Assembly (NCBI GenBank): GCA_023267435.1
Contig: JAHFNH010000002.1
Coordinates: forward strand, 4,219 to 68,218
From: Candidatus Nomurabacteria bacterium
GTDB lineage: Bacteria; Patescibacteriota; Minisyncoccia; Phycocordibacterales; UBA9973
Direction of reading: 5' to 3'
Length of the DNA: 64,000 bases
Numbering within the stretch: the stretch's first letter is position 1; every line of letters begins with the position of its first letter. A program made the translations under genes and the position numbers. The notes beneath the pieces are model-generated. The model saw nothing but the letters and a program-made list of their open reading frames with translations, searched no databases and was not told the DNA's origin. Shown one piece after another: positions 33,345 to 50,887 of the stretch.

Positions 33345-33800
33345 TTACTTACTTTCTAATACTTTAAGTACCCTAAGTTTGTCTTCTTCCGTCATTCTTT
33401 CCAAAAGAAGATTGTTTTTATCTTTAGTATATTTGTTTAATACCCAAAAAATAAAATTAGGGTCATCAGATAAGCAATTATTACTTTCTATAAAATTAAT
33501 ATCTTCCATTAAGGCATTAATTAATTTTGTAATAAATTCGTCCGATCTTAATACTTCTTCTTTTACAAATTCAGGTGAAATTACACCGACACTCAACTGT
33601 AAGGATTTAACATTAAGAATTACAAGAGTTTTTGTTTTAAGGTCAGACCAATCTGGGCTTTCGGTTTGATTCAAAATATCCTCTAACTTTTTATACATAT
33701 TGCTTATCCAATAATTAAAATTTTGTTCATGTTCTTTGGAAAGAGAACTAAAGACTTCTCTTGTTTTCCATACATGTGGTGTTTCATTTTTTTCTTCCAT
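33345..33800 (-). CDS. Hypothetical protein (island cassette 1, minus-strand arm)
   Basis: 151 aa, no recognisable motif. Driven by the palindromic promoter at 33865 and carries the conserved leader. Confidence 0.4.
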   Translation of the reverse strand: MEEKNETPHVWKTREVFSSLSKEHEQNFNYWISNMYKKLEDILNQTESPDWSDLKTKTLVILNVKSLQLSVGVISPEFVKEEVLRSDEFITKLINALMEDINFIESNNCLSDDPNFIFWVLNKYTKDKNNLLLERMTEEDKLRVLKVLESK

Positions 33801-33864
33801 AATATTAGATTTTTATATTGATTAAGAACTTTTGTTTATTTTTCCTTATACTACAAACAAATCA

Positions 33865-33876
33865 TTGACTTGTCAA
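33865..33876. promoter_or_regulatory. Palindromic shared -35 element TTGACTTGTCAA (bidirectional promoter 1)
   Basis: Plus strand: TTGACT-17-TATTGT. Minus strand: TTGACA-17-TAGTAT. Confidence 0.55.
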
Positions 33877-33950
33877 TGGGTTCGTGATATTGTTTGGTTA
33901 AATAGATTTCAGAAAACTAACCGAGCCTAGCTCATTAAAAAACAAAAAAT

Positions 33951-34274
33951 ATGAAAAATCTGTTACAGGAACTTTTATTAACTCATCAAAGTGTGAGAGG
34001 AGTTCAATTAAAAATTGTAAAACTTGCCGTTAATCGCTTAAACAGGTTATGTAAAAGAAAAATAGAATTTTCTGTACATGAAGATATAGAAGATAATTAT
34101 TATTGGATTTTTATTCCCAATAAAGTAGCTTTTGTTAAAAAAGTTAAACAACTTAATGAACAAATAAGAAAAGAATTAAAAGATGCGGATGCTAAATTTA
34201 ATCTCAGCTTTATGCCTCAAGCTACTAAAAGAAACATTCTCGATAGAAATGTAAACAAAGAAATTGTTTTTTAA
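33951..34274 (+). CDS. Hypothetical protein (cassette 1, plus-strand arm)
   Basis: 107 aa. Its conserved leader contains GAGCCTAGCTC. Confidence 0.4.
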   Translation: MKNLLQELLLTHQSVRGVQLKIVKLAVNRLNRLCKRKIEFSVHEDIEDNYYWIFIPNKVAFVKKVKQLNEQIRKELKDADAKFNLSFMPQATKRNILDRNVNKEIVF

Positions 34275-34293
34275 GAAAAATTATTTTTCAAAA

Positions 34294-34321
34294 AGCTCCA
34301 CAGAAATGTGGTGCTTTTTTA
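34294..34321 (+). terminator. Intrinsic terminator
   Basis: agctccaca-gaaa-tgtggtgct (one mismatch) followed by TTTTTT. Confidence 0.55.
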
Positions 34322-34395
34322 TTTATACTTACTCTAAACTTTAAAGATATTTCAGACAAATAAAAAAGCCTCCCCTTGCGGTTCGGCTTAATTGA

Positions 34396-34788
34396 CTAAA
34401 AAATATCTGTGTAATTATAAGAAGTGTTATTAGATGAATTTATTTCACCTGTACCTCCACATTTTCTACATTCAGAAATATAATATGGATCACCTCCACC
34501 TCCACCACACCTTTTGCATTTTTTCGCTTTCTTTTTATTGTCATAAAAACCATCTTCTATGTTCAATAATTTTTTTGTATTAAGAAGTTCGTGGTCATAA
34601 GGCAAAAAAGTACAAACTCTGTTATAGAATATCAAACTATTTTGCTGTTCTTTCCATGCATTAGTTAGAGCGTCAGAAGAACCAGCTATTACTATCCTTG
34701 GCATTAAAGGAGAATGGCTTGATTGTAACATTGCCATTACACCACCAGATTTATCGGATGTGATTAGAAGAATTGTGTATATTTCCAT
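34396..34788 (-). CDS. Hypothetical protein with two DnaJ-type CxxCxGxG zinc-finger repeats (cassette 2, minus-strand arm)
   Basis: 'CKRCGGGG...CRKCGGTG' at the C-terminus. The N-terminal 'ILLITSDKSGG...RIVIAGSSDALTNAW' looks like a small alpha/beta fold. Confidence 0.45.
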   Translation of the reverse strand: MEIYTILLITSDKSGGVMAMLQSSHSPLMPRIVIAGSSDALTNAWKEQQNSLIFYNRVCTFLPYDHELLNTKKLLNIEDGFYDNKKKAKKCKRCGGGGGDPYYISECRKCGGTGEINSSNNTSYNYTDIF

Positions 34789-34851
34789 TTGTATATAGTA
34801 TTTAATTGTTTAAGGACTCTGTTTATTTAACTTCACATTACCAAAAATTTG

Positions 34852-34863
34852 TTGACATGTCAA
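34852..34863. promoter_or_regulatory. Palindromic shared -35 element TTGACATGTCAA (bidirectional promoter 2)
   Basis: A perfect 12-bp palindrome. Plus strand: TTGACA-17-TAATGT. Minus strand: TTGACA-17-TAATGT through the 'cattaccaaa' block. Confidence 0.55.
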
Positions 34864-34906
34864 TTAGTCTATGTTAATGTTTAGTAAACCAAATAAAACT
34901 TGTACA

Positions 34907-35344
34907 ATGACAACAATAGAAAATTTAATCCTAGTCGGTGAAATTGAAAAACTCTTCAATGCTGACGCAAAAGCTAAAAAATATATTAAGGATGCAAAAT
35001 TCATATTAGTCTCTACAGATAATGTAAAGTACAAAATGATAATGCATTTAGCAAGCTATCCGTATGAATATCACTCCCAGGCGGTATTAAAATATATGGA
35101 AGACAACAATTTAAATGAAATCTATTCTTACGGTGGTGCTAAAATTGTATTAGGTACGATAGATGACGTATTGTGTCACGGAAAATCATACGCATTAAAA
35201 ACTGCCAATGATGAAAAGCTTACAGAAGTAGTAAAAAGTATTTGGCCAAATGCCGAATTAGAAATTATGACTTCTGGTGTAAAAGTTAAAGAGGCTATGC
35301 TTTTTCCAAAAGAACGAATTCAGTATTTTGCTGAACATCCTTAA
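34907..35344 (+). CDS. Hypothetical protein (cassette 2, plus-strand arm)
   Basis: Start moved to 34907 (MTTIENL) because the ORF-track start at 34871 lies inside the -10 element. Confidence 0.4.
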   Translation: MTTIENLILVGEIEKLFNADAKAKKYIKDAKFILVSTDNVKYKMIMHLASYPYEYHSQAVLKYMEDNNLNEIYSYGGAKIVLGTIDDVLCHGKSYALKTANDEKLTEVVKSIWPNAELEIMTSGVKVKEAMLFPKERIQYFAEHP

Positions 35345-35386
35345 GGTGATTTTAATTTATTAAATACGCTATTACAAAAACAAAAA

Positions 35387-35417
35387 ACTTGTCTGAATAT
35401 TCAGACAAGTTTTTTTA
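35387..35417. terminator. Bidirectional intrinsic terminator
   Basis: Perfect hairpin acttgtctga-atat-tcagacaagt flanked by an A-run and a T-run. Confidence 0.75.
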
Positions 35418-35422
35418 ATTTT

Positions 35423-35929
35423 TTAATTCAAAGGTTCTTTGTTTCTAATTAGTCTCAAGATCATTCTTATTGATTTAACTTGTTCATCAGAAAGAGAAAC
35501 CTGATATGATCCTACATTACATCTCTTTTGACCATTAAAATCTCGATATACATTCCCACATTTATCTTTAGACATCAAAGGCAGAATACCAAATCCAACA
35601 AGAGTTAGACTATGGCTATCAAGTAAAATCTTTTTACTTCCGTTATCATGAAGCATTTTATGTAAAAGAAATTTTACAATGTACTCAATATTACTACTGT
35701 GGTGCTCGATATTGTCATTGCAACCATAAAAAAATAATTGATTATTATTATCTCTCTTTATATGCAGAAGCGAACCCTGACTTTTGTAAAAAGTTAAGAT
35801 TTCATCAATTCCAAAAGTATTAATAAAATTATTAAATAATTTTACAATTTGATCATTTATTTCCTGAGGTCTTTTTTTATCGATTTTTGCAAAATCAATT
35901 GGCCTACTAAAATCTAGTTGTGATTCCAT
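35423..35929 (-). CDS. Hypothetical protein (cassette 3, minus-strand arm)
   Basis: 168 aa, no recognisable motif. Confidence 0.4.
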   Translation of the reverse strand: MESQLDFSRPIDFAKIDKKRPQEINDQIVKLFNNFINTFGIDEILTFYKSQGSLLHIKRDNNNQLFFYGCNDNIEHHSSNIEYIVKFLLHKMLHDNGSKKILLDSHSLTLVGFGILPLMSKDKCGNVYRDFNGQKRCNVGSYQVSLSDEQVKSIRMILRLIRNKEPLN

Positions 35930-35991
35930 TTTTATATATATTAAATTGTTTACGAACTCCGTTTATTTAACCTTAAACTACCAAAAAATTC

Positions 35992-36003
35992 TTGACCTGT
36001 CAA
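35992..36003. promoter_or_regulatory. Palindromic shared -35 element TTGACCTGTCAA (bidirectional promoter 3)
   Basis: Plus strand: TTGACC-17-TATTGT. The minus-strand -10 lies in the 'aaactaccaaaaa' block. Confidence 0.55.
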
Positions 36004-36107
36004 TGTTTTTGTGATATTGTTTGTTTAAATTTGTTGAGACAAAATCTCGTTAAACAAAACCTATATATCCCCCAACAATATTGTTTAATCCTTAAAAACT
36101 AAATATC

Positions 36108-36644
36108 ATGAAAAAACTATCAATGCTTTTATATCAAACTCAGGGCATTATCAAATTTTGTGAAGAAATAAATGCTGAATTAGTGAGATTGAAATTAACA
36201 AGAAAAACAACAGGTGGTTATCTGACCATCGTTGAACGCGATACAGGAGCTATTGTGTTAACAATCCTTATTGGAACACTCCAATTTGAAAGGACGGCAA
36301 AACATCGCAGATTATCCATTGAACAAGCAAAGAGGGTGTTTGATGAAAAACTTTCTTCCTCATTCCAAAACAGAAATATCGAACAAGGGAAATCGGCAGG
36401 AGCTGTTTCAGGAGAGAAATTTATCTATTCATTTTCCGGTCACTGTGAAGAAATAAATGAAGTTGTTTCCATACTTTCGTGTATTGAAAACGAACAATAT
36501 TTAAATCCTGAGTTTCAGGCAAATTTACGGCAAGGTGAAGATCCCAAGCCAATGGATGTAATCCTGAAAAAAATGGACCTTGAATCAAAATTTATGATGG
36601 TTTCTGGTATTCGCAGTTTTATCAGCAAAATATTTGTTTGGTAA
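36108..36644 (+). CDS. Hypothetical protein (cassette 3, plus-strand arm; GC noticeably higher than neighbours)
   Basis: 178 aa with a long 113-nt leader. Confidence 0.4.
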   Translation: MKKLSMLLYQTQGIIKFCEEINAELVRLKLTRKTTGGYLTIVERDTGAIVLTILIGTLQFERTAKHRRLSIEQAKRVFDEKLSSSFQNRNIEQGKSAGAVSGEKFIYSFSGHCEEINEVVSILSCIENEQYLNPEFQANLRQGEDPKPMDVILKKMDLESKFMMVSGIRSFISKIFVW

Positions 36645-36664
36645 GTTCTTTGGTAAAAATTAGA

Positions 36665-36696
36665 AAGCCACTGGTGAAAATCAGTGGCTTTTTTTA
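36665..36696. terminator. Bidirectional intrinsic terminator
   Basis: aagccactg-gtgaaaat-cagtggctt followed by TTTTTTT. Confidence 0.75.
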
Positions 36697-37959
36697 TTTA
36701 ATTACTGCATTCGTTCCTGCCACAAAACCCGTCGTCCAGCATATTTGCAGACTATATCCTCCAGATGGACGGTCTATGTTTAATAAATCTCCAATTATAT
36801 AAAGATTTGGATATAATCTGGAACGCATAGTTTTGAAATCAATTTCATTTAACGCTACACCTCCGCTAGAAACTATTGCTTTATCTAAACCCAAAAGTTT
36901 ATCGATATTTATTGGAATTCCTTTTAATAAAGAAATTAATTTTATGCGTTCTTCACGAGTCACACTATTGCATTGAATTTCTGGATCAATGCCGGATAAT
37001 TCCACTACAACTGGTACGACAGATGATAAAATCAAACCAGCTAAACAATTTTTAAATTTCTTTTTATCATTTTCTTTAAATATTTCTAAAAGCTTTAGAT
37101 TAAGTTTTTCTTGATCGAAATTTGGTAAAAGATCTAATTTTATTACCACATCGCCATAGCCTAACAATCCACCTATATCTTTGCTCATATTTAAAATAGT
37201 GGGTCCACTGACGCCGACATGGGTAAATAGAATTTTACCTGTTTTTGAAATAGGACGTTTTTTGATAAATTGTTTTACATCATCCAAGTAAACAGTGAGT
37301 TTTACATTATCAAGACTGACTCCAGCTAATTTTTTAATCCATTTATCTTTCGTAGCGAGTGGCACAAGCGAAGGTATCGGTTCGATGATTGTATGCCCGA
37401 TATTTTTTAGCCATTTGAATGCGTCCCCTGTCGAACCTGTTTCTGGATGAGATTTACCTCCAGTAGCGACGATAATAGAACGAGCATAAATTATTTTATC
37501 TACAATTTTTACACCAATGATATTTTTATTTTCTATAACAAAATCAACAACTGGAGAATTTGATAATATTGTTACTTTTTCTTTTTTAATATATTCCACC
37601 ATAACATTCCAAACGGATTGAGATTTATTACTAACAGGGAAAACTCTTTGTCCTGGTTCTATTTTTGTTTCCATATTTCTGTTATGGAAAAAATCCAATG
37701 TTTCCTTTACGCTATATTGTGAAAAAGCTGAAAATAAGAATTTTCCGTCGTCTTTGAATTTTTCCAGAAGTTTCCTGTTGTCGAATTCTGCATTGGTGAC
37801 ATTACATCTGCCTCCGCCTGTAATAAGGAGTTTCTTGCCTAGAGAGTCATTTTTCTCAATTAAAATAACTTTTGCGCCGAGTTCAGCTGCTCGTCCTGCC
37901 GCCATCATTCCAGACGGTCCGCCTCCTATTATAACCACATCCCAAACATTTTCTTTCAT
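36694..37959 (-). CDS. HI0933/YhiN-family FAD-dependent flavoprotein
   Basis: 'DVVIIGGGPSGMMAAGRAAELGAKVILIEKNDSLGKKLLITGGGRCNVTN' is the signature of this family. Confidence 0.7.
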   Translation of the reverse strand: MKENVWDVVIIGGGPSGMMAAGRAAELGAKVILIEKNDSLGKKLLITGGGRCNVTNAEFDNRKLLEKFKDDGKFLFSAFSQYSVKETLDFFHNRNMETKIEPGQRVFPVSNKSQSVWNVMVEYIKKEKVTILSNSPVVDFVIENKNIIGVKIVDKIIYARSIIVATGGKSHPETGSTGDAFKWLKNIGHTIIEPIPSLVPLATKDKWIKKLAGVSLDNVKLTVYLDDVKQFIKKRPISKTGKILFTHVGVSGPTILNMSKDIGGLLGYGDVVIKLDLLPNFDQEKLNLKLLEIFKENDKKKFKNCLAGLILSSVVPVVVELSGIDPEIQCNSVTREERIKLISLLKGIPINIDKLLGLDKAIVSSGGVALNEIDFKTMRSRLYPNLYIIGDLLNIDRPSGGYSLQICWTTGFVAGTNAVIK

Positions 37960-38078
37960 TTTTATATGTTAGCACAAAAAATTTAAAGAAAATAAATAGA
38001 TTGACATATCGTATGTTTTATGATATCATCTCTATCAGAAATAGAATTGTTGTTTAACATAATATAAAAACCAAAAAA

Positions 38079-38513
38079 ATGAAAACTTTAATTATTTTAG
38101 ATAATTTAATAGGATTACAAAATTCCTTAATTATCGCTTGTGTTTGTATTGCAGTTGGCTTCGTTGTCTTTATTTATTTATTTTTGCTTTTTAAAGCAGC
38201 GTCATCAGCTCCATTGAAACCACTTATAACCAAACCGCGCAAAACGGTTGGACTTCCGGAATTACCGGATGGAACAAATCTGATCATTTTAGACAATAAA
38301 GAAGATTTGCCGATCGCACAAGATATTAAAGATTACAATATTGGTTTGAAAAAAAATGTTCTTGAAAATACTTTCTATCTTGCTAATTTTGGCAAAGAGA
38401 AATTGGAAGTAAATCAGGTTTATATCGTCAAACTGATAGGTAGTGGCAAGATCCATACTTTATGCAAAGTTGAAATTATGTTCAGCCCGGAGTACAACAC
38501 ACATCTAAATTAA
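38079..38513 (+). CDS. Hypothetical membrane-anchored protein
   Basis: 144 aa with one TM. Confidence 0.35.
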   Translation: MKTLIILDNLIGLQNSLIIACVCIAVGFVVFIYLFLLFKAASSAPLKPLITKPRKTVGLPELPDGTNLIILDNKEDLPIAQDIKDYNIGLKKNVLENTFYLANFGKEKLEVNQVYIVKLIGSGKIHTLCKVEIMFSPEYNTHLN

Positions 38514-38581
38514 GTTTTAAAGAACCAATCGTTAATAATGATTGGTTCTTTTATTTTTATATATAATGCTATAATAAAAAA

Positions 38582-39142
38582 ATGAAAAAACTTGCCAGTA
38601 AAATGTCTTTTTTAAAAACAATGGTGTGTGATTTCAAAGTAGCTGCTGTCGCCAGCAGTTCGTCTTATGTTGTTAATCGCGTTATTAGTAAAATTGACGA
38701 TGGTTTGAATTTGATTATTGAACAAGGTTCTGGAGATGGAGTTATGACTAAAGCTTTGCTTACAAAGCTTTCCCCTGATGGAGCTTTAATCCTAATAGAA
38801 ACTAATCCAGAATTTGTAAAACAATTAAAAAAAATTGAAGACAAAAGAATCACAATATTTTTTGGTACTGTCCAAGATTTTTATAAAAAAATAGATGCAA
38901 ATCATTCTAAAGCAGATCTTGTCATATCCAGCATCCCCTTTTCTTTTCTAAAAACATCAGAAAGAGATGAAGTAATTAAAAAAAGTTTCGAAGTGCTTTC
39001 TGATTCTGGAAGTATGGTTATTTTTCATCAATACAGTCTCCTAATGCACAAATATGTTAAAAAATATTTCAAACATGTTTCAATCTTTTTTGAACCTAGA
39101 AATGTGATGCCGTGTTTTATAATTTTCGGTAAGAAAAAATAA
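38582..39142 (+). CDS. Class I SAM-dependent methyltransferase
   Basis: Motif I 'IIEQGSGDGVMT', an acidic residue after beta2 'LIETNPEF', and motif IV 'VISSIPF'. Confidence 0.55.
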   Translation: MKKLASKMSFLKTMVCDFKVAAVASSSSYVVNRVISKIDDGLNLIIEQGSGDGVMTKALLTKLSPDGALILIETNPEFVKQLKKIEDKRITIFFGTVQDFYKKIDANHSKADLVISSIPFSFLKTSERDEVIKKSFEVLSDSGSMVIFHQYSLLMHKYVKKYFKHVSIFFEPRNVMPCFIIFGKKK

Positions 39143-39146
39143 AAAA

Positions 39147-39176
39147 AGACTTATTTAAACAATAAGTCTTTTTTTA
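39147..39176. terminator. Bidirectional intrinsic terminator
   Basis: agacttatt-taaac-aataagtct followed by TTTTTTT. Confidence 0.7.
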
Positions 39177-39179
39177 TTT

Positions 39180-39743
39180 TTATATTTTTCCGATTAAATC
39201 AACACCTGGCGTTAAAACATCTTTGCCTGGCTCCCAGTTTGCTGGGCAGACATTTCCTTTATGTTCTCTTACGAATTTAGCCGCTTCTAATTTTCTAACC
39301 ATTTCCTTTGCACTTCGGCCAATGTTATTGTCATGAATTTCTATTGTCTTTAAAACTCCATCTGGATCAATAATAAAAGTCCCTCTTAAGGCCAATCCTT
39401 CAGTTTCAATATAAGTCCCAAATGCTCTAGAAATATTACCTGTCGGATCAGCCAGCATTGGATATTGTATTTTACCTATAGCAGGAGAAGTATCATGCCA
39501 AGCTTTATGCGCGAAAGCTGTATCAGTACTAATACTCATAATCTCTCCTCCTAATTTTTTTATTTCTTCGTAATGTACGGTTGCATCTTCTAATTCTGTC
39601 GGACAAACGAAAGTAAAATCTGCAGGATAAAAAATTAGTACTACCCATTTGCTTTTATAATCAGAAAGCTTGATTTTCTTTATCTCATTATTTTGATACG
39701 CATCCAGCTCAAAATCTGGAACAATTGAATTTATATTTATCAT
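39180..39743 (-). CDS. Peroxiredoxin (typical 2-Cys, AhpC/TSA family)
   Basis: 'FYPADFTFVCPTE' peroxidatic Cys motif and a resolving Cys near the C-terminus 'GNVCPANW'. Confidence 0.85.
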   Translation of the reverse strand: MININSIVPDFELDAYQNNEIKKIKLSDYKSKWVVLIFYPADFTFVCPTELEDATVHYEEIKKLGGEIMSISTDTAFAHKAWHDTSPAIGKIQYPMLADPTGNISRAFGTYIETEGLALRGTFIIDPDGVLKTIEIHDNNIGRSAKEMVRKLEAAKFVREHKGNVCPANWEPGKDVLTPGVDLIGKI

Positions 39744-39826
39744 AGTATTATTATACTCCCAATTTCTTAGATTGTAATCAATCTGTAGAAATTGCAGTCC
39801 TTTAGGGCTAATAAAAAGTATTAAAT

Positions 39827-41056
39827 CTATAAGCGTTCTTTTTCTTCTTCTTCTATTCTTTCTAGTGCTAAGATAAAAGCTGCACGGCGCAGATCTGTTT
39901 TGAGCGAGTTTGCTTTTTCGTAAATTTCCAACGCCTCGTTAACCATGATTGTTTTTAATTTCGCAAAAACATCAATTTCATTCCAATGCTCGCCTTTTAG
40001 ATTTTGTTCCCATTCAAAAGTTGAGACCGTAACTCCTCCGGCATTTGCAAGGATATCTGGAATAACTGAAATACCGCGTCCAAACAAAATATCATCAGCT
40101 TCTGGAGTAGTTGGGCCGTTAGCAAGCTCCATGACAAGTTTCGTTTTTATATCATTAGCATTTTTCTCTGTAATCTGGCTTTCCATTGCGGCAGGAATAA
40201 GAACATCGCATTCCAGGATTAGAAGTTCATTGTTGGATATTTTTCTAGATCCCGGGAATCCTTCAATTTTTCCATTTACTTTTTTATACTCGTTTAGTGC
40301 ATTTATATCAATTCCATCTTCTTTTAAAATTGCTCCATCTACTTCTGAGATAGCTATTATTTTATGTCCATTTTGAAATAAAATATTTGCAGCATTTCCC
40401 CCAACATTTCCAAATCCTTGAATTACAATCTTACAAGATTCGGGTAAATGTAATTTACTGCGAAGTGTATCAAAAACATAAAATCCTCCGAGTCCTGTAG
40501 CTGGACCCCTGCCTTCTGATCCGCCAGCTTCTATCGGTTTTCCAGTAAATGTCGCATTTGTTTTATCGCCAGTAATTTTTACATATTCATCAGCCATCCA
40601 AGCCATAATTTCCGGAGTCGTATTCATATCAGGCGCTGGCACGTCTATTTTTGGACCAATATCTCTTGCCATCATTTTTACCCAACCACGTGAAAGTTTT
40701 TCTATTTCACCTTTTGATAATTCTCTTGGGTCAACAGTCACACCGCCTTTACCACCACCCATCGGAATGTTTACCACAGCGCATTTGAGCGCCATCCAAA
40801 ATGCCAACGCTTTAACTTCATTAATATCAGTATCTTTGTGGTATCTAATACCACCTTTGTATGGACCACGGGCATTATTGTATTGAACACGATAACCCTC
40901 AAAAACCTTTAAAGAGCCATTATCCATAGTTATTGGAATAGATATTCTAATTTCACGTTCTGGTTGTGTTAGAAGTGAAATAAATTCAGGGTTAAATTGT
41001 TTTACTTTTGTAGCTCTTTCGAGCTGATTCATTGCATTTTGAAATGGATTATTCAT
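39827..41056 (-). CDS. gdhA: Glutamate dehydrogenase (Glu/Leu/Phe/Val dehydrogenase family)
   Basis: 'GPYKGGIRYH', the 'GGGKGG' active-site region, and the Rossmann 'GFGNVG'. Confidence 0.85.
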   Translation of the reverse strand: MNNPFQNAMNQLERATKVKQFNPEFISLLTQPEREIRISIPITMDNGSLKVFEGYRVQYNNARGPYKGGIRYHKDTDINEVKALAFWMALKCAVVNIPMGGGKGGVTVDPRELSKGEIEKLSRGWVKMMARDIGPKIDVPAPDMNTTPEIMAWMADEYVKITGDKTNATFTGKPIEAGGSEGRGPATGLGGFYVFDTLRSKLHLPESCKIVIQGFGNVGGNAANILFQNGHKIIAISEVDGAILKEDGIDINALNEYKKVNGKIEGFPGSRKISNNELLILECDVLIPAAMESQITEKNANDIKTKLVMELANGPTTPEADDILFGRGISVIPDILANAGGVTVSTFEWEQNLKGEHWNEIDVFAKLKTIMVNEALEIYEKANSLKTDLRRAAFILALERIEEEEKERL

Positions 41057-41141
41057 AGATATTTTTATTAATTATTTTAATAGAAATATCATATACTTTC
41101 TTTATGAAGCTGCCATGAAGATAAATTTAAAAATAAAAAAG

Positions 41142-43514
41142 TTAAATAACTTTTAAAGTTTGTAGTTTGTCGTTGGGGTTTAGTAATTTCATTTTGAAAA
41201 ACCAATGACTAATACTATATTGAGCAAGAGCGTAAAGAATAGTGAGCGGTATTATTTCTATAATATTATGTAATGATGCGCTTTCTAGATTGTAAAAATT
41301 AGCGATGAATGGGATTTTAAAGAAAAGAATAATAAATATAAATTCAACTACAATAAGCAGGAAAAATTGTTTTTTCTTGTTTTTTGTAGTTGGTCTACCA
41401 AATACGTTGGGTGTATACATAAAAAATATAACTCCTAGAATAATGAACGAGAGTACCACAAGACTTGTCGGACCATGGTTTTTCATATACTCAAAGCTTT
41501 CATAAAATGCAAAAATAGCGACCAGTGCCTGAGGAATAGCCGATATGAGTGTAAAAGGAATTACTTTTCGCAAAAAAGATTTATTATAATCCACGACACT
41601 ATTTTTAATAGGTCGAATAATCCAATAAAAAACAAGAAGTGATGGCAGGCCTACAGTAAAATAATTAATAAAAGTTATATTGAGTGGAGTAAATGGAAAT
41701 GAATGACTTGTTATCGCGACAATTATAAAAAAGAAAAAAGTTACGAATACTTGATTGAAAATAACACTAGCGCATATTTCAAGATTTTGAATTATACTAT
41801 CAGCAAGTTTTACGCCATTTGGCAGATCAGAGAAACTATTTTTTACCAATACCACTGAAGCAACTTGTCGAGTAGCTTGCGCACCGTCAAATAAGGCAAT
41901 ACCTAGATCGGCTTTTTTAATAGCTAGTGCGTCGTTTGCACCGTCACCTACCATTGCTGTAAAACCATCTTGTTTTAAGATTTCAATTATTTTTTCTTTT
42001 TGTTCAGGTTTTATTCTCGCAAATATAGTATATTTATGAATATTTTTTAAGAAATCAATATATGTCCAAGTTTCTAATTCAGCACCCGTTATAACATTTT
42101 GATAGTTATTTATACCAACTGCAGCAGCGACAGCTTGAACAGTTTTAGGATTATCACCGGAAATAATTCTGATTGTTACACCTCGTGCTTGAAAGAATTG
42201 TATGGCTTCTTTAACTCCTTCGCGAAGATTGTTGTTGAGTACAAATATAGATATGGCCTTCAATTTAATTCCGGAAAGATTTTTAGGTAAAACATTTAAA
42301 TCCGATCCGACAAAACAGATAAGTCGTTTACCGATTTTTGCTTCAGTTTCTATGAATTTTTGTACCCATGCTTTGTCTTCTTCTTTTGATAAATATGGCA
42401 AGAAAAGATCGGGTGCTCCAGCCAATACGACACGCTCGCCAAAATCATCCTTTATATGAACAGCTCCAAACTGGAGCGATGAAGAAAAAGTCAGATCATC
42501 TATCGTGGTGCCTAAATACTCGCTTGTAAACATTTTCTTTATAGCTCTAATAGTTTGAGATGAATCCCCTGTACTTTTAATGTATGCAGCGATAGATTCT
42601 TTGACAAATTTTTCACTTAGATCTGATATATTATGCATATGTTCAACGATCAAGTTATTATCGGTCAATGTTCCAGTCTTATCCATACAAAGATTTTTAA
42701 TTCTGCCAATTTTCTCAGTAGCGTTTATTTCTTGAAGCAATACATTTCTGCGATAAAGATGAGTTGCACCATATGAATAAACAAGTGTAACAATCACCAC
42801 CATACCTTGTGGTAAAAGAGCACTCGTTAACGCTCCTATATTTCGGATAATATCTACTGTAGATTCATGAATTAAAAAACCTCTACCGATAACAAAAAGA
42901 ATTATGAGCATAAGCACATAACCGGTGTATTTAATAACCATACTGATAGATTCCTGAATTGGACTTTGTATTAAAGAATATTTTTTTATATCCTTTGTCA
43001 TAAGAGAAATTCTACTTTCAGCAAATATTTTTTCAACTTCCAAAACGCCTAATCCTGATGTGATAATACTTCCAGCTAGTACATGATCATTAGGTTTCTT
43101 TAGAAATGTCGTAGGTTCACCTGTAATTAGTGCTTCATTTACTCCAAATCCATGCGAAGACGCCAAGATACCATCACAAGGTACTTGGTCTCCTGTTTTG
43201 AGTTTAATTTTATCTTTTTCTTTTATTTCTTCAATAAGAACAACTGATTCGGTACCGTTTTTGTTAATTCTGATTACTCTGGGAGCAGCCAGTAATTGCA
43301 ATTTTTCAAGAGTTAACCATGCATTAATTTCCTGAACACATCCAATGATGATATTTAATAAAGCAATTAATCCAAGAAACATTCCTTCTTGAGTGTCTCC
43401 AAATGTCGTAAGGAGAATTACAACAGAAAAAATAATTCCATTTACAAGAAGGAAGACATTACGATAAATAATATTTATAACAGTATTTAGTTTACTTAAA
43501 CGGATTTTGTCCAC
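41142..43514 (-). CDS. P-type cation-transporting ATPase (no N-terminal metal-binding domain; P2-like)
   Basis: 'DKTGTLT' phosphorylation site, 'GDGANDALAIKKADLGIA', and ten predicted TM helices. It starts at GTG. Confidence 0.8.
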   Translation of the reverse strand: MDKIRLSKLNTVINIIYRNVFLLVNGIIFSVVILLTTFGDTQEGMFLGLIALLNIIIGCVQEINAWLTLEKLQLLAAPRVIRINKNGTESVVLIEEIKEKDKIKLKTGDQVPCDGILASSHGFGVNEALITGEPTTFLKKPNDHVLAGSIITSGLGVLEVEKIFAESRISLMTKDIKKYSLIQSPIQESISMVIKYTGYVLMLIILFVIGRGFLIHESTVDIIRNIGALTSALLPQGMVVIVTLVYSYGATHLYRRNVLLQEINATEKIGRIKNLCMDKTGTLTDNNLIVEHMHNISDLSEKFVKESIAAYIKSTGDSSQTIRAIKKMFTSEYLGTTIDDLTFSSSLQFGAVHIKDDFGERVVLAGAPDLFLPYLSKEEDKAWVQKFIETEAKIGKRLICFVGSDLNVLPKNLSGIKLKAISIFVLNNNLREGVKEAIQFFQARGVTIRIISGDNPKTVQAVAAAVGINNYQNVITGAELETWTYIDFLKNIHKYTIFARIKPEQKEKIIEILKQDGFTAMVGDGANDALAIKKADLGIALFDGAQATRQVASVVLVKNSFSDLPNGVKLADSIIQNLEICASVIFNQVFVTFFFFIIVAITSHSFPFTPLNITFINYFTVGLPSLLVFYWIIRPIKNSVVDYNKSFLRKVIPFTLISAIPQALVAIFAFYESFEYMKNHGPTSLVVLSFIILGVIFFMYTPNVFGRPTTKNKKKQFFLLIVVEFIFIILFFKIPFIANFYNLESASLHNIIEIIPLTILYALAQYSISHWFFKMKLLNPNDKLQTLKVI

Positions 43515-43644
43515 GGATGATACGAATTAAGAATAGGATAACAGCTAAGACAAGAAGAATATGAATAAATCCACCTAAAACATGAAATCCAATAAAACCA
43601 ACAACCCATAAAACAAATAAGATAATTGCAATTAATGTAAGCAT
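43495..43644 (-). CDS. lmo0937-family small membrane protein
   Basis: 50 aa, 'MLTLIAIILFVLWVVGFIGFHVLGGFIHILLVLAVILFLIRIIRG', found by manual translation. Its 3' end overlaps the ATPase start by 20 nt in another frame. Confidence 0.4.
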
Positions 43645-43682
43645 ATAAATATAATATTAGATAATAAATTATTAATAAAAAA

Positions 43683-43868
43683 TTACTTTTTGGTTTTTTC
43701 CTTGATTACTTTGGTATTTTTAAAATACTCTACAACACCCCAAATTAGAGCTATAACACCTATAATTTTTAAAACAAAACCTATAACACCTATACTGACC
43801 AGAATATTTAGTCCTAGACAAATTCCGGCAGTTATTAATAAAACTTGATAAGAAGGCGATTTTTTCAT
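43683..43868 (-). CDS. Small two-TM membrane protein
   Basis: 61 aa, hydrophobic. Confidence 0.3.
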   Translation of the reverse strand: MKKSPSYQVLLITAGICLGLNILVSIGVIGFVLKIIGVIALIWGVVEYFKNTKVIKEKTKK

Positions 43869-43957
43869 ATTTTTAAATTAAAATTAACTAATAATAAATG
43901 TTGCATAAATTATAACATATTTGCGCAAACTGACATATTTTTTTAGGGATAATTTAT

Positions 43958-43993
43958 AAAAAACAAAAAGCCATATCTGTATAAGATATGGCT
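43958..43993 (-). terminator. Intrinsic terminator (minus strand)
   Basis: agccatatc/gatatggct 9-bp stem with a T-run on the minus strand. Confidence 0.65.
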
Positions 43994-44005
43994 TTAAAAC
44001 TAATT

Positions 44006-44497
44006 TTAACTAACAATTTTTTTACCTAAAACAATATACATCCTATCTGGTATATGAGTAACTGAATGGTTTGAACTATTAAGGTGTCCTTCATTATTCT
44101 CTGATACGAAATATGGGACAGCTGCATGTTTCCAATAATCTTCAAGAGACAATATTCTATTTGGAGACAAAATCCAAGAATCTTTTGGTAATTCTTTATT
44201 ATTATTTAAAAATAATAAAGCGATACCTTTTACTCCAGTAAGAATATATCCTTCATCTTTAGCTTCCAATAGGAATTTATATGTAGGACATATTTCTTGC
44301 TTTACTTTAAAAATAAAGAAATCAATTTTTCCTTCAAAATCTTGTTCCAGGGGGAAATTTTGATCATTCACGCCATTCGTAATTGAGCGTAAATTTTTTC
44401 CGTGTTTTTCAATAAATTCGTTTATTGAAAAACCAGGTTCAACGCGTAATGTAATATTTTTTATACATTCGAGCGAGTATCTTTCTAGTAGATTCAT
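44006..44497 (-). CDS. Hypothetical protein
   Basis: 163 aa ORFan with its own terminator. Confidence 0.4.
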   Translation of the reverse strand: MNLLERYSLECIKNITLRVEPGFSINEFIEKHGKNLRSITNGVNDQNFPLEQDFEGKIDFFIFKVKQEICPTYKFLLEAKDEGYILTGVKGIALLFLNNNKELPKDSWILSPNRILSLEDYWKHAAVPYFVSENNEGHLNSSNHSVTHIPDRMYIVLGKKIVS

Positions 44498-44575
44498 TTT
44501 ATGTAGGTTTTAAGTTGTTTAAGAACTAAATAGTTTATTTAATTTAAAAATAACAATAAAAAATATGTTTGTCAA

Positions 44576-44929
44576 TTAGAAACCTGAAGCTCGAGTCGTC
44601 GCGTCTAAATCTATTTCTCTAGCATAATCTTTAGTTGTTATGAGCTCTTTTAAGAGCACATATAGATCTGTTAGTTCAGAGTTTACCTTATTAGATTCTA
44701 AAAATATTCCAAGCTCTGGAGTAATTCTTTGTTTGGTTATAATTTCTTCTATTTTTTCAGCTTCTGTTCCATTAAAAAATGTTTGGTAGTTTTTCAAAGT
44801 ATCTTCGATATTGTATTTAGTTTTGTATAACTCATCCGATTTTAACAACTCTAAATTACCTAATGAAAGCATTTTGCTCACACTTTGATAATGAGATAAT
44901 AGTTTTCTTACCAATTCTTGATCTGTCAT
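44576..44929 (-). CDS. Hypothetical protein
   Basis: 117 aa ORFan. Confidence 0.35.
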   Translation of the reverse strand: MTDQELVRKLLSHYQSVSKMLSLGNLELLKSDELYKTKYNIEDTLKNYQTFFNGTEAEKIEEIITKQRITPELGIFLESNKVNSELTDLYVLLKELITTKDYAREIDLDATTRASGF

Positions 44930-44974
44930 ACAGAAAACTATTCTAACATTTTTAAATAAAAATTACCGCAATAA

Positions 44975-45008
44975 AAAATAAAAAAACACCTAACATAATA
45001 TCAGGTGT
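44975..45008 (-). terminator. Intrinsic terminator (minus strand)
   Basis: aacacct/aggtgtt stem with a T-run on the minus strand. Confidence 0.6.
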
Positions 45009-45021
45009 TTTTAATGCTTAC

Positions 45022-45510
45022 TTAAATTTTTGACAATAAAAATTTGTAACAATTTTCAATGATTTCGGTGTCCTTTACACTATTGAAAGAAATTCCCTCC
45101 GTGCTGATGTAAAAATGAAAAGAATGTTCATTATCAACAATCCCCTTATTAAACAAAAATACGGAGATTTTTTTAACTGAGCCGTTCATTGAATCTTCCC
45201 CATTTTTGCCGATCTTAATTGTGGTCATCATATACTTATTTTTATTCTCGTCAAAGAAAGAATAAGTGCGAGCGCATGGACCCATTCCGTCAGGTATTTT
45301 TCCATTTTTTTCAACATAAGTTAAAAATTTTTCAAATTTTTCTTTACCTACAAGGATTTGTGGTTGTGGTCCAGAAGTATTGATATCAATACTAGGTTTT
45401 TTAATGTTTATGTGGGTATTATCAGCAGAAACATTTTGGTCTTCTTTTTGTGAACAATTTGTCAAAACAAGAGACATAAAAATTACGATTGAAATTAAGA
45501 TTCTTCTCAT
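45022..45510 (-). CDS. Putative lipoprotein
   Basis: Signal peptide ending 'VLTNCS' (lipobox-like). Confidence 0.4.
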   Translation of the reverse strand: MRRILISIVIFMSLVLTNCSQKEDQNVSADNTHINIKKPSIDINTSGPQPQILVGKEKFEKFLTYVEKNGKIPDGMGPCARTYSFFDENKNKYMMTTIKIGKNGEDSMNGSVKKISVFLFNKGIVDNEHSFHFYISTEGISFNSVKDTEIIENCYKFLLSKI

Positions 45511-45697
45511 TGTGTTTATTTTTTGGTTTAGTTTATGTATTTGTTAGGTCATTTCTAGTTCCTTAAAGAAACAGAAATAACCCAACAAATCAAAACCAAA
45601 ATTTAATGTAAAGAACTTTTACTTTTCATATAGTATAATATATACATTGATTTGTCAAATAATAATCATTTATATAGATGAAATATATTCATTGTTG

Positions 45698-45735
45698 GTA
45701 AAAAACAAAAAAACACCCCTGATAATAAGGGATGT
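45698..45735 (-). terminator. Intrinsic terminator (minus strand)
   Basis: aacacccc/gggatgtt stem (one mismatch) with a T-run on the minus strand. Confidence 0.55.
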
Positions 45736-46179
45736 TTAATTACTGATTAGATTCAAAATATCATTTGATAACTCTGGGTCATCGATGTATCTTAAATCTC
45801 TGATCAACCTGGTTTTGTAGTTTTCAATGATTTTTTGCGGTGTTTTTAAAAAAGCGACAAAAGTTTCTTGCTCTCTTAAAAACAATTCTCTGTATCTTAG
45901 ATCATTTTGAAGCCTTCGTCCTATAATATAATCTTCTTCACTCGTTTGATTATCAAAATACTCGGCTGAAGTAGGAATTTCATAAAGAGAATGATCTTCA
46001 TCATAAAATTCTTCTGAGCTTAAATAATCTTTGAGTTCCCCACTTGCTTCGTTCCATGCTTTATGTGCCTCGTCTACTACTTTTTGTTTAAAGTAAGGTT
46101 CAAGTAAAACATAATACAAAGTTACAAACATAATTATAAAATACAAAACTGTCGATACCTCTTGTAATATAAAAAACAT
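45736..46179 (-). CDS. Hypothetical membrane-anchored acidic protein
   Basis: 147 aa with an N-terminal TM. Confidence 0.4.
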   Translation of the reverse strand: MFFILQEVSTVLYFIIMFVTLYYVLLEPYFKQKVVDEAHKAWNEASGELKDYLSSEEFYDEDHSLYEIPTSAEYFDNQTSEEDYIIGRRLQNDLRYRELFLREQETFVAFLKTPQKIIENYKTRLIRDLRYIDDPELSNDILNLISN

Positions 46180-46262
46180 AGTTGCCTCCTTTTTTAAAGT
46201 TTAACTAATTCTATTTAAAGATTACCATAATAATGGTATTAGTCAATGAAGTTTGTGTGAAT

Positions 46263-46296
46263 AAAAAAACCCCCTCATAACATATATAAGGGGGTT
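46263..46296 (-). terminator. Intrinsic terminator (minus strand)
   Basis: aaccccct/agggggtt stem with a T-run on the minus strand. Confidence 0.7.
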
Positions 46297-46324
46297 GGAC
46301 ACTAGAGAGAAACGGCAACAACTT

Positions 46325-46630
46325 TCATTGGTCTTTGAGTAGTTCTTTCATGGAATTGATTTGTAAAAAAGGTATAAGTTCAATTTTTAAAGCCACCTCT
46401 ATCTTACTTATTTCAATCAAAGAAAAATTATGTGACCCTGAAGTCCAGTATGAAAGTTTTCTGGGAGTAGTCTTTAATTTATTCGCCATTGTTTTTTCGT
46501 CAATTTTATTTTGACTCATGTAATGGTTTATTAAAGAAGCAATATTCGAGGAATGTGCGGTTTGAACGCATCCTACTTGGTCTTTTTTAGCTTCTGCTAA
46601 TATGTTTTCAAAACGAGTGCTGTTGTTCAT
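46325..46630 (-). CDS. Small protein with a C-terminal XRE-like helix-turn-helix
   Basis: 'KTMANKLKTTPRKLSYWTSGSHNFSLIEISKIEVAL' follows an XRE HTH pattern. Transcribed from promoter 4 (TTGACTCGTCAA). Confidence 0.4.
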   Translation of the reverse strand: MNNSTRFENILAEAKKDQVGCVQTAHSSNIASLINHYMSQNKIDEKTMANKLKTTPRKLSYWTSGSHNFSLIEISKIEVALKIELIPFLQINSMKELLKDQ

Positions 46631-46701
46631 TTTTGCAGGTTTTTAGTGTTAGACATTTATTTCAAGTAACTAAATCTTTTTATCACATTACCAAATATCC
46701 G

Positions 46702-46713
46702 TTGACTCGTCAA
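46702..46713. promoter_or_regulatory. Palindromic -35 element TTGACTCGTCAA (promoter 4, minus strand only)
   Basis: Minus strand: TTGACG-17-TAATGT. There is no -10 on the plus side. Confidence 0.5.
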
Positions 46714-46721
46714 TGTTGAAA

Positions 46722-46758
46722 TAAAAAAGCACCTCAGTTATATCGAGATGCTTTTTAT
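46722..46758 (-). terminator. Intrinsic terminator (minus strand)
   Basis: gcacctc/gagatgc stem (one mismatch) flanked by an A-run and a T-run. Confidence 0.5.
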
Positions 46759-46772
46759 TTAATTCTTTGTGA

Positions 46773-47324
46773 TCAACTTATTAATTTTTCAATAAATTCT
46801 TTTTTGAAAACAATTGCGTAATCACGATTTTCAAACCAATGATCTGTGGCTTCAAATGGTCTTAAAACTGGAATTTTATCGCTAAATATTTGATATTCAA
46901 AACAAAGAATATTTAAATACTTTTCATCATTAATTGGTGTCGCCATCGAACCAAAAAAGTTGATTGTATTTAATTTATTTGGATTATGAATACCTCCTAT
47001 TTCATTCCACCATTTTGATTTTAACTCTATTAATATTTCACGATCTTCCAATATTGCCCTTGCGCAAAATACATCAAGTGGAATATGTTTCTCATCTATT
47101 ACTTGCTGTCTGAATTCTAATCCAGTAACAAATCGTTTTTTAACAGGAATAAAACACGTATCATCAAGTGTAAAAGGAATGTGCCAAATAAAATTCATTA
47201 ATTGGTATTGTTTTAAAATAAAGAAATCTCCATACTCATCAGTAATCTTATTACTAAAAGTAAAAGGTTTGTCTGTATTGATAACTATTTTTTTCATTTT
47301 ATTAAGTTTTAGAGTATTTATCAA
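46773..47324 (-). CDS. Hypothetical protein
   Basis: 183 aa ORFan. Confidence 0.4.
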   Translation of the reverse strand: MINTLKLNKMKKIVINTDKPFTFSNKITDEYGDFFILKQYQLMNFIWHIPFTLDDTCFIPVKKRFVTGLEFRQQVIDEKHIPLDVFCARAILEDREILIELKSKWWNEIGGIHNPNKLNTINFFGSMATPINDEKYLNILCFEYQIFSDKIPVLRPFEATDHWFENRDYAIVFKKEFIEKLIS

Positions 47325-47429
47325 AGATCTATGCTTGTTTGTATAATAAAATTATTATACACAAAAGTCAATTTCTGACCTAAAGTTTTACTACTAGACA
47401 AGACCTAGTCGATTAAAATAAGGTTTAAA

Positions 47430-48092
47430 TTACCAAGCCATTTTCTCCCCTTTGAACCAAAATTGTCCAGTTTCAACTTTTGATATAGCTAAATCATAAA
47501 TATAACCAGCTGATTCTTCGGTGGTCATAGGTGCGTCACTACCACCCATATCTGTTTTTACCCAGCCAGGGTGATATGAGGATACAGTTATTTTATCTTT
47601 CAAGTGAATAGCCAGTGTTCGAGTATACATATTGAGTGCAGTTTTTGAAATTCTGTAACTTGGATATTCATCGTCATCTATTTCTTGAGTCTTAGCCAGA
47701 GATCCAGCCGAAGACGCAGCATTTAATATATGAGCTCCAATACTAAGAACAGAAATAATTTGTTCTGTAAAAGTAATAGTTCCAATTAAATTTACTTCAA
47801 GTGTTTTTCTTAAATTTTCTATATTTACTGTGTTGAAATTTCTATCAACAAGAATTCCAGCATTATTAATTAAAATATCTATTTTTTTATTTAAAAATTT
47901 AATTTCATTAACACACTCTGTGATACTTTCCGAGTTTGATAAATCTATCTTAACAATTTTTAGATTGTCACTTTTAATATCAGAATTTCCATCAGTAGAA
48001 GTTCCGATCACATAATGACCTTCTTTTAAAAACTTTTCTGTCAGAGCTTTTCCTATTCCTCTACTAACTCCTGTTATTAATACTGTTTTCAT
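47430..48092 (-). CDS. Short-chain dehydrogenase/reductase (SDR)
   Basis: 'TGVSRGIGKA' cofactor site, 'NNAG', and catalytic 'YRISKTALN'. Confidence 0.8.
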   Translation of the reverse strand: MKTVLITGVSRGIGKALTEKFLKEGHYVIGTSTDGNSDIKSDNLKIVKIDLSNSESITECVNEIKFLNKKIDILINNAGILVDRNFNTVNIENLRKTLEVNLIGTITFTEQIISVLSIGAHILNAASSAGSLAKTQEIDDDEYPSYRISKTALNMYTRTLAIHLKDKITVSSYHPGWVKTDMGGSDAPMTTEESAGYIYDLAISKVETGQFWFKGEKMAW

Positions 48093-48159
48093 AATTATGT
48101 ATTATATCAAAAATTGTTTCTGGATGTTGAACATACGGAAACATATTACCAAAGATTCG

Positions 48160-48171
48160 TTGACTCGTCAA
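48160..48171. promoter_or_regulatory. Palindromic shared -35 element TTGACTCGTCAA (bidirectional promoter 5)
   Basis: Plus strand: TTGACT-17-TATTGT, with a leader containing GAGCAATTGCTC (48217-48228). Minus strand -10 lies in 'cattaccaaag'. Confidence 0.55.
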
Positions 48172-48245
48172 TGTTTTTGTGATATTGTTCAGGTAAATAA
48201 TTTCTGAGTATAAACCGAGCAATTGCTCATTAAAAATATAATATT

Positions 48246-48911: not shown

Positions 48912-48923
48912 AAAAAGCCAAAA

Positions 48924-48956
48924 AGCTGATAACTATATCGTTGTCAGCTTTTTTTA
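48924..48956 (+). terminator. Intrinsic terminator (plus strand)
   Basis: agctgataac/gttgtcagct stem (one mismatch) followed by TTTTTTT. Confidence 0.65.
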
Positions 48957-48962
48957 TTTCTT

Positions 48963-48995
48963 AAAAATAAAAAAACGCCCAACATTGTTGGACGT
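48963..48995 (-). terminator. Intrinsic terminator (minus strand)
   Basis: cgcccaaca/tgttggacg stem with a T-run on the minus strand. Confidence 0.55.
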
Positions 48996-49018
48996 TAATT
49001 GTGATTTTGTTTCAAGAT

Positions 49019-49519: not shown

Positions 49520-49547
49520 ATTTATATAGTTTAGAATTGTTAGATTG

Positions 49548-49600
49548 ATTGATTTAGTTACTTTAGTCTCCGTGTAGAAGTTCAAAGTAACTAAATCAAT
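49548..49600. repeat. Perfect 17-bp inverted repeat attgatttagttacttt / aaagtaactaaatcaat with a 19-nt spacer
   Basis: Read directly. It lies 29-82 nt upstream of the 49519 start codon. Confidence 0.6.
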
Positions 49601-49715
49601 AACAACTAAAACCTAATATCAAAGATCTATAACCAATGAAAGTATAGCATATTATATTAAAAAGTCAATAGATAAAATCCTTATAAAATAAGGCTAATTA
49701 AGACAATTAAACAAA

Positions 49716-50791: not shown

Positions 50792-50887
50792 TTTTTAATT
50801 ATAACAAATTTCCGAATTTCGCAAGGAACATTCTTGTAAATTAGAGTAGTAATCTTATAAGTTTTTTTATCTTGTTTTTCGTGCTAT

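Follow-up and report, generated by a model that had tools for sequence, protein, structure and literature searches.

Opposite-strand sigma-70 promoters with adjacent -35 hexamers, one lying inside the spacer of the other within an inverted repeat, have been described at mtrR/mtrCDE of Neisseria gonorrhoeae (bioRxiv 10.1101/448712). Two further kinds of promoter bear comparison. Putative mobile promoters are homologous upstream sequences of 50-100 nt found before non-homologous, mostly hypothetical genes, and some of their families cross genomes (Matus-Garcia, Nijveen and van Passel 2012, PMC3488235). A -10 element common to both strands defines the bidirectional promoters of Warman, Grainger and colleagues, whose start sites lie 7-25 bp apart, most often 18 (bioRxiv 10.1101/2020.01.31.928960; PMC12825309). 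The subject of this analysis is a palindrome, TTGACNNGTCAA, which is present exactly five times in a 64,000-nucleotide stretch of contig JAHFNH010000002.1 (the window), at positions 33865, 34852, 35992, 46702 and 48160 (sites 1 to 5). We estimate a probability of about 0.75 that this palindrome is the core of a two-way housekeeping-sigma promoter cassette, which would express pairs of accessory genes.

The two-way layout with crossed -35 elements is itself already known, and the cassette joins known kinds. The mtrR/mtrCDE region is the closest characterised analogue, the likeness being a -35 hexamer that lies within the spacer of the opposite-strand promoter, as both halves do in the cassette. 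However, mtr is a single locus with binding sites for the repressor MtrR and the activator MtrA, whereas the cassette is repeated and has a perfect 5+2+5 palindrome, conserved leaders and an extended -10 at either side, no regulator site having been identified in it. In common with the putative mobile promoters, the cassette consists of homologous upstream DNA before non-homologous hypothetical genes; that definition is one-directional and based on similarity, while the cassette is two-way, includes both leaders and is more diverged. The mobile-promoter threshold (at least 80% over at least 50 nt) was reached by three of ten pairs of copies, 1-3 (82%), 2-3 (82%) and 3-5 (80%); the other pairs showed 60-76% over 50 nt, site 4 never passed, and the flanking genes were non-homologous. 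The cassette also resembles the promoters of Warman, Grainger and colleagues in having a symmetric element read on both strands and divergent transcripts, the latter predicted here, but falls outside that class because the -35 region is shared, with the -10 elements 34 bp apart and the predicted starts far more widely spaced.

The number of matches to TTGACNNGTCAA in the window was compared with dinucleotide-preserving shuffles, in which 0.08 were expected and the maximum was one per shuffle. All five copies were intergenic, and TTGAC and GTCAA with any other gap from 0 to 15 were not found in the window. TTGACN was present in all ten half-sites and, reading outward from the half-site, the order TTGACN, 14 nt, TGn or TTG, and TAnnnT was found in nine of the ten, giving a spacer of exactly 17 bp. 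The plus-side -10 hexamer was TATTGT at sites 1, 3 and 5 and TAATGT at site 2; the minus-side hexamers at sites 1 to 5 were TAGTAT, TAATGT, TAGTTT, TAATGT and TAATAT respectively, each 17 bp from TTGACN. An extended -10 (TGn) was present in eight of the nine halves that have a -10, and was absent from promoter 1- alone.

The -35 of the plus promoter occupies positions 1-6 of the 12-mer and that of the minus promoter positions 12-7. The hexamers therefore abut on opposite strands in a crossed arrangement, each forming the first six bases of the spacer of the other promoter, and this arrangement alone would generate the palindrome. The -10 elements end at +28 and -17 when the first base of the palindrome is taken as reference (their inner edges being the 34 bp apart already given), and two start sites ~60 bp apart are predicted if each lies ~7 nt past its -10. 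The symmetry ends exactly at the five bases that define each -35; the right flank is mostly TG and the left flank is variable. The other strongly conserved positions, in the window and in metagenome sites, were a T-rich tract, T/G at -15/-14 and TA...T. The original prediction had listed the five sites, had placed -10 hexamers 17 bp from each half and had read the palindrome as two abutting -35 hexamers of divergent promoters; all of this was borne out, although the TGn had been overlooked. Pattern, positions, homology of the copies and conservation were established in silico, and from these we infer promoter firing, start sites and the interplay of the polymerases. The cassette copies and the predicted promoters, the latter assigned by sequence pattern, are as follows.

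33796-33946, plus strand: cassette copy 1, both leaders and promoter core (nhmmer E=3e-22; member of repeat family D1).
33865-33876, unstranded: palindrome 1, TTGACTTGTCAA, two abutting -35 hexamers (match to TTGACNNGTCAA).
33865-33893, plus strand: promoter 1+, TTGACT-17-(TGA)TATTGT, upstream of 33951-34274.
33848-33876, minus strand: promoter 1-, TTGACA-17-TAGTAT, upstream of 33345-33800.
34784-34930, plus strand: cassette copy 2 (nhmmer E=2e-23; D1 and D3).
34852-34880, plus strand: promoter 2+, TTGACA-17-(TGT)TAATGT.
34835-34863, minus strand: promoter 2-, TTGACA-17-(TGG)TAATGT, upstream of 34396-34788.
35931-36070, plus strand: cassette copy 3, the central node of the family (nhmmer E=4e-27; at least 80% over 50 nt to copies 1, 2 and 5).
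35992-36020, plus strand: promoter 3+, TTGACC-17-(TGA)TATTGT, upstream of 36108-36644.
35975-36003, minus strand: promoter 3-, TTGACA-17-(TGG)TAGTTT, upstream of 35423-35929.
46634-46772, plus strand: cassette copy 4, truncated, with a terminator-like hairpin in place of the right half (nhmmer E=3e-13; repeat pairs D10 and I1).
46685-46713, minus strand: promoter 4-, TTGACG-17-(TGG)TAATGT, upstream of a helix-turn-helix (HTH) gene.
48095-48240, plus strand: cassette copy 5 (nhmmer E=1e-21; D1 and D3).
48160-48188, plus strand: promoter 5+, TTGACT-17-(TGA)TATTGT, upstream of 48246-48911.
48143-48171, minus strand: promoter 5-, TTGACG-17-(TGG)TAATAT, facing the SDR gene 47430-48092.

Behind promoter 2+ the gene probably starts at the ATG at 34907 (145 aa), and not at 34871, which adjoins the -10.

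All five sites are diverged copies, in the same orientation, of one cassette of 140-150 nt, which comprises a left leader, two promoters and a right leader. Sites 1, 2, 3 and 5 were recovered by repeat search as an 84-nt direct-repeat family (D1) with 62-79% identity in the same orientation, and sites 2-5 as a 34-nt family (D3), in which sites 4 and 5 have an identical 12-mer and 91% identity. A profile built from the copies recovered all five over 140-150 nt (nhmmer, E 3e-13 to 4e-27) and found no further copy in the window. Inverted symmetry of the cassette is limited to the promoter core and the mirrored -10 regions (repeat I3). As the copies are homologous, the enrichment of the palindrome reflects a propagated cassette and not five independent events. 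A near-palindrome, TTGATTTGTCAA, at 45647-45658 has an intact minus half, TTGACA-17-TACTAT, upstream of 45022-45510 on the minus strand; it was not recovered by the cassette profile, and may be related to the cassette core as a decayed or one-sided form.

The divergent gaps that hold sites 1, 2, 3 and 5 measure 150, 82, 178 and 153 bp respectively; the palindrome is present in four of the ten divergent gaps of the window, and orphan genes adjoin all four. At site 4 the plus-side -10 is absent and the right flank is a terminator-like hairpin with a GC stem and a T run at ~46719-46758, which was read from the sequence and is not in the list of the terminator scan. Since the right half of site 4 runs into this hairpin, the site can drive only the minus-strand HTH gene, 46325-46630, as the original prediction had proposed.

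The pattern found at the palindrome is also that of other promoter-like sites in the window. TTGAC-N14-16-TGnTAnnnT had 15 matches, every one of them intergenic, where intergenic DNA makes up 12% of the window, and on this ground it was taken as the real promoter pattern of the host; eight of the matches are palindrome halves and the others lie upstream of further genes. A generic sigma-70 scan of the window was not enriched (88 found versus 93 expected), therefore the signal is carried by the specific extended form. The one-sided pattern TTGACNNGTCAA-N8-TGNTANTGT, which includes the -10, matched six half-sites, with 0 expected.

The proteins that flank the cassettes are unrelated to one another and, with the exception of the SDR, gave no convincing match to a Pfam, PHROG or PADLOC family. 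Sites 1 to 3 separate genes in the following tandem arrangement.

33345-36644, unstranded: three tandem divergent pairs of orphan genes, encoding 151/107, 130/145 and 168/178 aa, with one cassette each (open reading frames (ORFs), domain search).

Terminator-like hairpins lie between and after the three pairs, two-way at 35382-35415 and 36662-36693 and weaker near 34298-34389. The 130-aa orphan at 34396-34788 on the minus strand has a C-terminal glycine-rich, zinc-finger-like motif, CxxCGGGGG...CxxCGGTG; its only similarity, a weak one, is to the central domain of DnaJ and three PHROGs without known function.

The distance from -10 to ATG was 38-57 nt on 17 of 23 cassette sides, and both predicted leaders contain conserved sequence. 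Left leaders have a common AAAUAAAC...AGUUCUUAAACAA motif. A hairpin of 4-5 bp with loops of 3-6 nt, followed by UUAAA, is present in the right leader at sites 1, 3 and 5 and at metagenome locus L144. The stems are GAGC/GCUC or GAGA/UCUC, and have thus changed on both sides. The copies in the window, found by motif search and folding, are:

33923-33933, plus strand: 5'-leader hairpin GAGC-CTA-GCTC, then ATTAAAAA.
36036-36048, plus strand: 5'-leader hairpin GAGA-CAAAA-TCTC, then GTTAAAC; both sides of the stem differ from copies 1 and 5.
48217-48228, plus strand: 5'-leader hairpin GAGC-AATT-GCTC, then ATTAAAAA.

The motif of a hairpin followed by UUAAA occurs four times in 195 kb, each time 44-58 nt to the right of a palindrome. 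The varying loop length favours an element acting as RNA rather than a protein operator. The predicted stability is low, however, -4 to -5 kcal/mol with z-scores between -1.4 and -2, and the instances number only four. Rfam detected two tRNAs only in the window at gathering score, and nothing credible for the leaders in 33700-36200 at E<1. A single promoter, TTGACA-17-TATTTT with TG, was also observed at 44498-44575; this promoter, at 44575 on the minus strand, carries a left-type AAAUAAAC...AGUUCUUAAACAA leader, as in cassettes 1-3.

Relatives of the cassette were sought in metagenome contigs. The scan retrieved ten loci, among which L144, L139, L136 and L138 have members of the cassette family, complete with leaders, next to further orphan genes; L152 and L153, retrieved through the SDR, also carry one. 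The modules of L152 and L138 are orthologous. Their cassettes are 88-96% identical over ~170 nt, while the flanking ORFs have 40-60% DNA identity and encode proteins that are 52% and 32% identical. The excess of identity in the cassette over its flanking ORFs indicates that the cassette sequence is under stronger constraint than its genes, or is homogenised by exchange. A lysine-rich ORF of 41 aa that adjoins the cassette in L152 (13189-13314), and also in L138, has 94-100% DNA identity between these two loci, far above its neighbours.

The arrangement was also found in uncultured phages. The skeleton TAnCA-N8-TTGACnnGTCAA-N8-TGnTA, which is that of the cassette, was present in 110 IMG/VR viral contigs, mostly with TGnTATAAT on both sides. 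Removal of sites too near to contig ends left 108 phage sites, forming 23 sequence clusters with a GC content from 33% to 63%. These phage promoters differ from the cassette in that they have no homology to it outside the consensus elements, their TATAAT is near-perfect, 4-bp gaps are equally common and none has been characterised. With both spacers fixed at 17 bp and the gap between TTGAC and GTCAA varied from 0 to 6, gaps of 0, 1, 2, 3, 4, 5 and 6 bp were found in 2, 10, 110, 16, 96, 26 and 17 viral contigs, and in 2, 8, 22, 5, 30, 15 and 10 clusters (sites at least 250 nt from contig ends) respectively. Many of the 2-bp and 4-bp clusters come from one sample, 3300045988, and the peaks at 2 bp and 4 bp are consequently not independent evidence for a preferred geometry. 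By this pattern, predicted two-way promoters with crossed -35 elements are recurrent, and the 2-bp gap is common, not unique. Sample 3300045988 contains a large group of small contigs from uncultured phages, ~12-18 kb in length (for example L106, L105, L188 and L198), with crossed -35 elements, a 2- or 4-bp gap and near-consensus TGnTATAAT on both sides.

Of two representatives queried, neither matched an annotated phage: for L106 the sole match was partial and to a fecal phage record that lacks annotation, and L072, which represents another phage group, gave no match. The one-sided pattern gave 27 unrelated matches in viral contigs (promoter-like sites and coding sequence), none related to the cassette of the window. 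Whether the phage sites are flanked by ORFs to left and right proved not to be discriminating, and the literal 12-mers were absent from the searchable literature.

The gene behind site 4 was examined as the candidate for a regulator.

46325-46630, minus strand: 101-aa protein, probable divergent Cro/C1 (XRE) HTH (remote homology).

This protein had no direct Pfam match at E<0.1 and no close homologue among 5.8 billion proteins. An exhaustive HMMER search gave 93 remote homologues; of 31 that were aligned, 28 match HTH_3, and their profile matches HipB, C.BclI and MBF1 in the PDB. The protein itself matches PADLOC PDC-M64C (2.6e-12) and PDC-M64B (4.6e-11), components of the candidate defence system PDC-M64; no PADLOC match was found for the neighbours of the gene, 45736-46179 and 46773-47324. 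A single-sequence structure model had a pLDDT of 44 and was unusable. On the indirect evidence of these remote homologues, profile matches and PDC-M64 hits, the product is probably a divergent Cro/C1-type HTH protein, in agreement with the original prediction, and it could plausibly regulate itself at site 4. The further suggestion that it controls the whole set of sites was unsupported: at close range the protein is a singleton, none of the other cassette-bearing loci, which are short, encodes a homologue, and the symmetry of the palindrome stops at the -35 bases.

An operator could in principle coexist with the promoters. On this explanation, which we regard as unlikely, the palindrome would serve mainly a dimeric regulator, the 101-aa HTH protein or another factor found throughout the lineage, that covers both -35 boxes and silences both directions. 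The inverted repeat is perfect, a Cro/C1-type gene stands behind site 4 in the layout usual for autoregulation, sites 4 and 5 share their 12-mer within 34 nt of 91% identity, and conservation of the cassette exceeds what promoter elements alone need. Set against this, there is no symmetry beyond TTGAC/GTCAA, and the centres of the half-sites are only 7 bp apart, a spacing that is short for HTH dimers. The candidate protein has no close homologue among 5.8 billion proteins and no homologue in the other, short cassette-bearing loci, and the same palindrome recurs in many unrelated phage lineages, where 4-bp gaps are found too; this recurrence favours a cause at the level of the promoter.

If instead the two promoters formed an either/or switch, polymerase bound in one direction would exclude the other and the paired genes would be expressed alternately. 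The core promoters do overlap by 12 bp, each -35 lying within the spacer of the other; changes to the -35 of gonococcal mtrR/mtrCDE have been proposed to move polymerase between promoters (bioRxiv 10.1101/448712), and competition has been demonstrated at promoters that share a -10 under high activity (PMC12825309). No competition was seen there at basal activity, however, and divergent transcription may couple neighbours positively through supercoiling (ilvY/ilvC, cited in PMC4469952). In the cassette the centres of the -35 elements are 6-7 bp apart which, by our geometric estimate, is ~205-240 degrees round the helix. The two sigma region 4 domains would then approach the helix from almost opposite sides, with the enzymes extending in opposite directions, and for this reason the statement of the original prediction that two polymerases cannot occupy both promoters at once is not established. 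A switch is a real but doubtful prospect. A non-autonomous mobile element, resembling a miniature inverted-repeat transposable element, or a recombination site that merely looks like promoters, would fit a repeat family that is scattered next to unrelated genes, both inside one genome and across genomes, orthologous genes with and without the cassette, and a serine recombinase ~9 kb from the copy in L152. It appears very improbable given the fixed distance to start codons on both sides, the same orientation of all five copies, and conservation that reaches the ATGs, as that of leaders would; the inverted symmetry is restricted to the promoter core and mirrored -10 regions, so that there are no terminal inverted repeats, and no integrase or transposase was found in the window.

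A two-way promoter cassette is the interpretation that we prefer, and several observations weigh against it. The copies in the window are not independent, so that the statistics overstate the support. The metagenome loci were retrieved with a pattern that requires TACCAA and TGnTA, which biases the conservation of their -10 elements, and only the sites in the window are unbiased in this respect. The -10 hexamers TATTGT and TAGTTT are imperfect. Conservation runs through both leaders, beyond what promoter function alone explains. SDR orthologues at 90-71% identity are without the cassette, their sole promoter-like element being an extended -10 within a few bases of the ATG, and the one homologue of the 221-aa protein, at 44% identity, is preceded by another repeat and no cassette; the link between gene and cassette is consequently unstable. 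The SDR gene of the window also has such a promoter of its own, and promoter 5- may for that reason be redundant.

48101-48130, minus strand: proximal extended -10 promoter of the SDR gene, TGATATAAT, ending 8 nt before the ATG (sequence pattern; the same kind in cassette-less SDR orthologues).

In the proposed mechanism, two promoters of sigma-70/sigma-A type would point apart, each built of a TTGACN -35, a TAnnnT -10 and, between them, 17 bp that include a T-rich tract and TGn, and each transcript would have a leader of 35-50 nt without a Shine-Dalgarno sequence. The cassette would have been propagated before unrelated, lineage-specific genes in a Patescibacteria (Minisyncoccia-like) chromosome, with selection retaining it as an expression module. 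The palindrome could be explained in this way without a site-specific regulator; a regulator acting on it is possible, though not required by any observation.

The window is chromosomal, encoding DnaB, several aminoacyl-tRNA synthetases, PBP2, PilB, a short DnaX, TopA, RelA/SpoT and ParB. The nearest named relatives of the SDR are from metagenome-assembled genomes of Minisyncoccia, Parcubacteria, Pacebacteria and the 'Patescibacteria group', which places the host, with a GC content of ~32%, among the Patescibacteria. Many housekeeping genes in the window have an extended -10 (TGnTAnAAT) that ends 6-10 nt before the ATG, without a Shine-Dalgarno sequence and without a TTGAC -35. Examples are the gene starts at 940(-), 8439(+), 12229(+), 20142(-), 38582(+), 39743(-) and 48092(-), and further at 50791(-), 52460(-), 54683(-), 58063(+), 61369(+) and 63834(-). 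With an extended -10 just before the ATG and no Shine-Dalgarno, leaderless messages may be the default in this lineage; the SDR orthologues in L148, L150, L152 and L154 follow the same pattern. A Bacteroidota-type -33/-7 promoter was considered, as the genes lack a Shine-Dalgarno sequence, and was dropped; the TAnnTTTG register did not fit and the names of the SDR homologues pointed to Patescibacteria.

To our knowledge, almost nothing is known of transcription control in Patescibacteria (candidate phyla radiation (CPR) bacteria), since very few are cultivable. The window suggests two expression regimes, one of leaderless housekeeping genes with a proximal extended -10 and one of orphan genes with a -35 cassette and conserved leaders. 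The more original parts of the present analysis are this apparent split within a CPR genome and how widely -35-sharing promoters occur among phages. A speculative view, which we hold to be more probably wrong than right, is that the cassette is a portable two-way expression module used across the Patescibacteria lineage, and that promoters with crossed -35 elements, 2 or 4 bp apart, form a widespread class which extends to phages and lacks a systematic description. Such a module would equip accessory genes that evolve fast with a conserved leader and a promoter dependent on its -35, in genomes whose housekeeping genes appear mostly leaderless; a GUUC motif would mark the leader at one side, and a small hairpin followed by UUAAA the leader at the opposite side, and the module would be more constrained than the genes it drives, perhaps because some further factor reads it. 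Should transcript mapping bear out the two regimes, the cassette would offer a way to mark accessory, possibly host-interaction, genes in such genomes, and a compact natural two-way promoter usable in synthetic biology. The phage survey suggests that sharing of the -35 region, and not of the -10, is a recurrent route to two-way promoters.

Some other features of the window and of related contigs were recorded. About a dozen minus-strand genes, mostly orphans without domains, lie at 43683-52460 between a P-type ATPase and tRNA-Gln (53208-53279); those up to ~49.6 kb are spaced by gaps of 78-225 nt, several with a promoter-like site and/or a terminator-like hairpin, and no integrase was seen in this run. 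For the 735-aa TopA (59087-61294, plus strand), the cluster returned by exact-sequence look-up otherwise lists 52-aa Flp pilins, apparently an artefact of how the database groups sequences rather than anything biological. Another intergenic repeat, GGTTCCnACTTCGTCCCA, distinct from the cassette, does not occur in the window; in related contigs from Patescibacteria it precedes several unrelated genes by ~65-130 nt (L323:461, 1114, 2021 and 3620; L324:604 and 2203; L325:922; L150:9935; L151:2394). This element may represent a second upstream module that has been propagated, or a promoter that an alternative sigma factor recognises.

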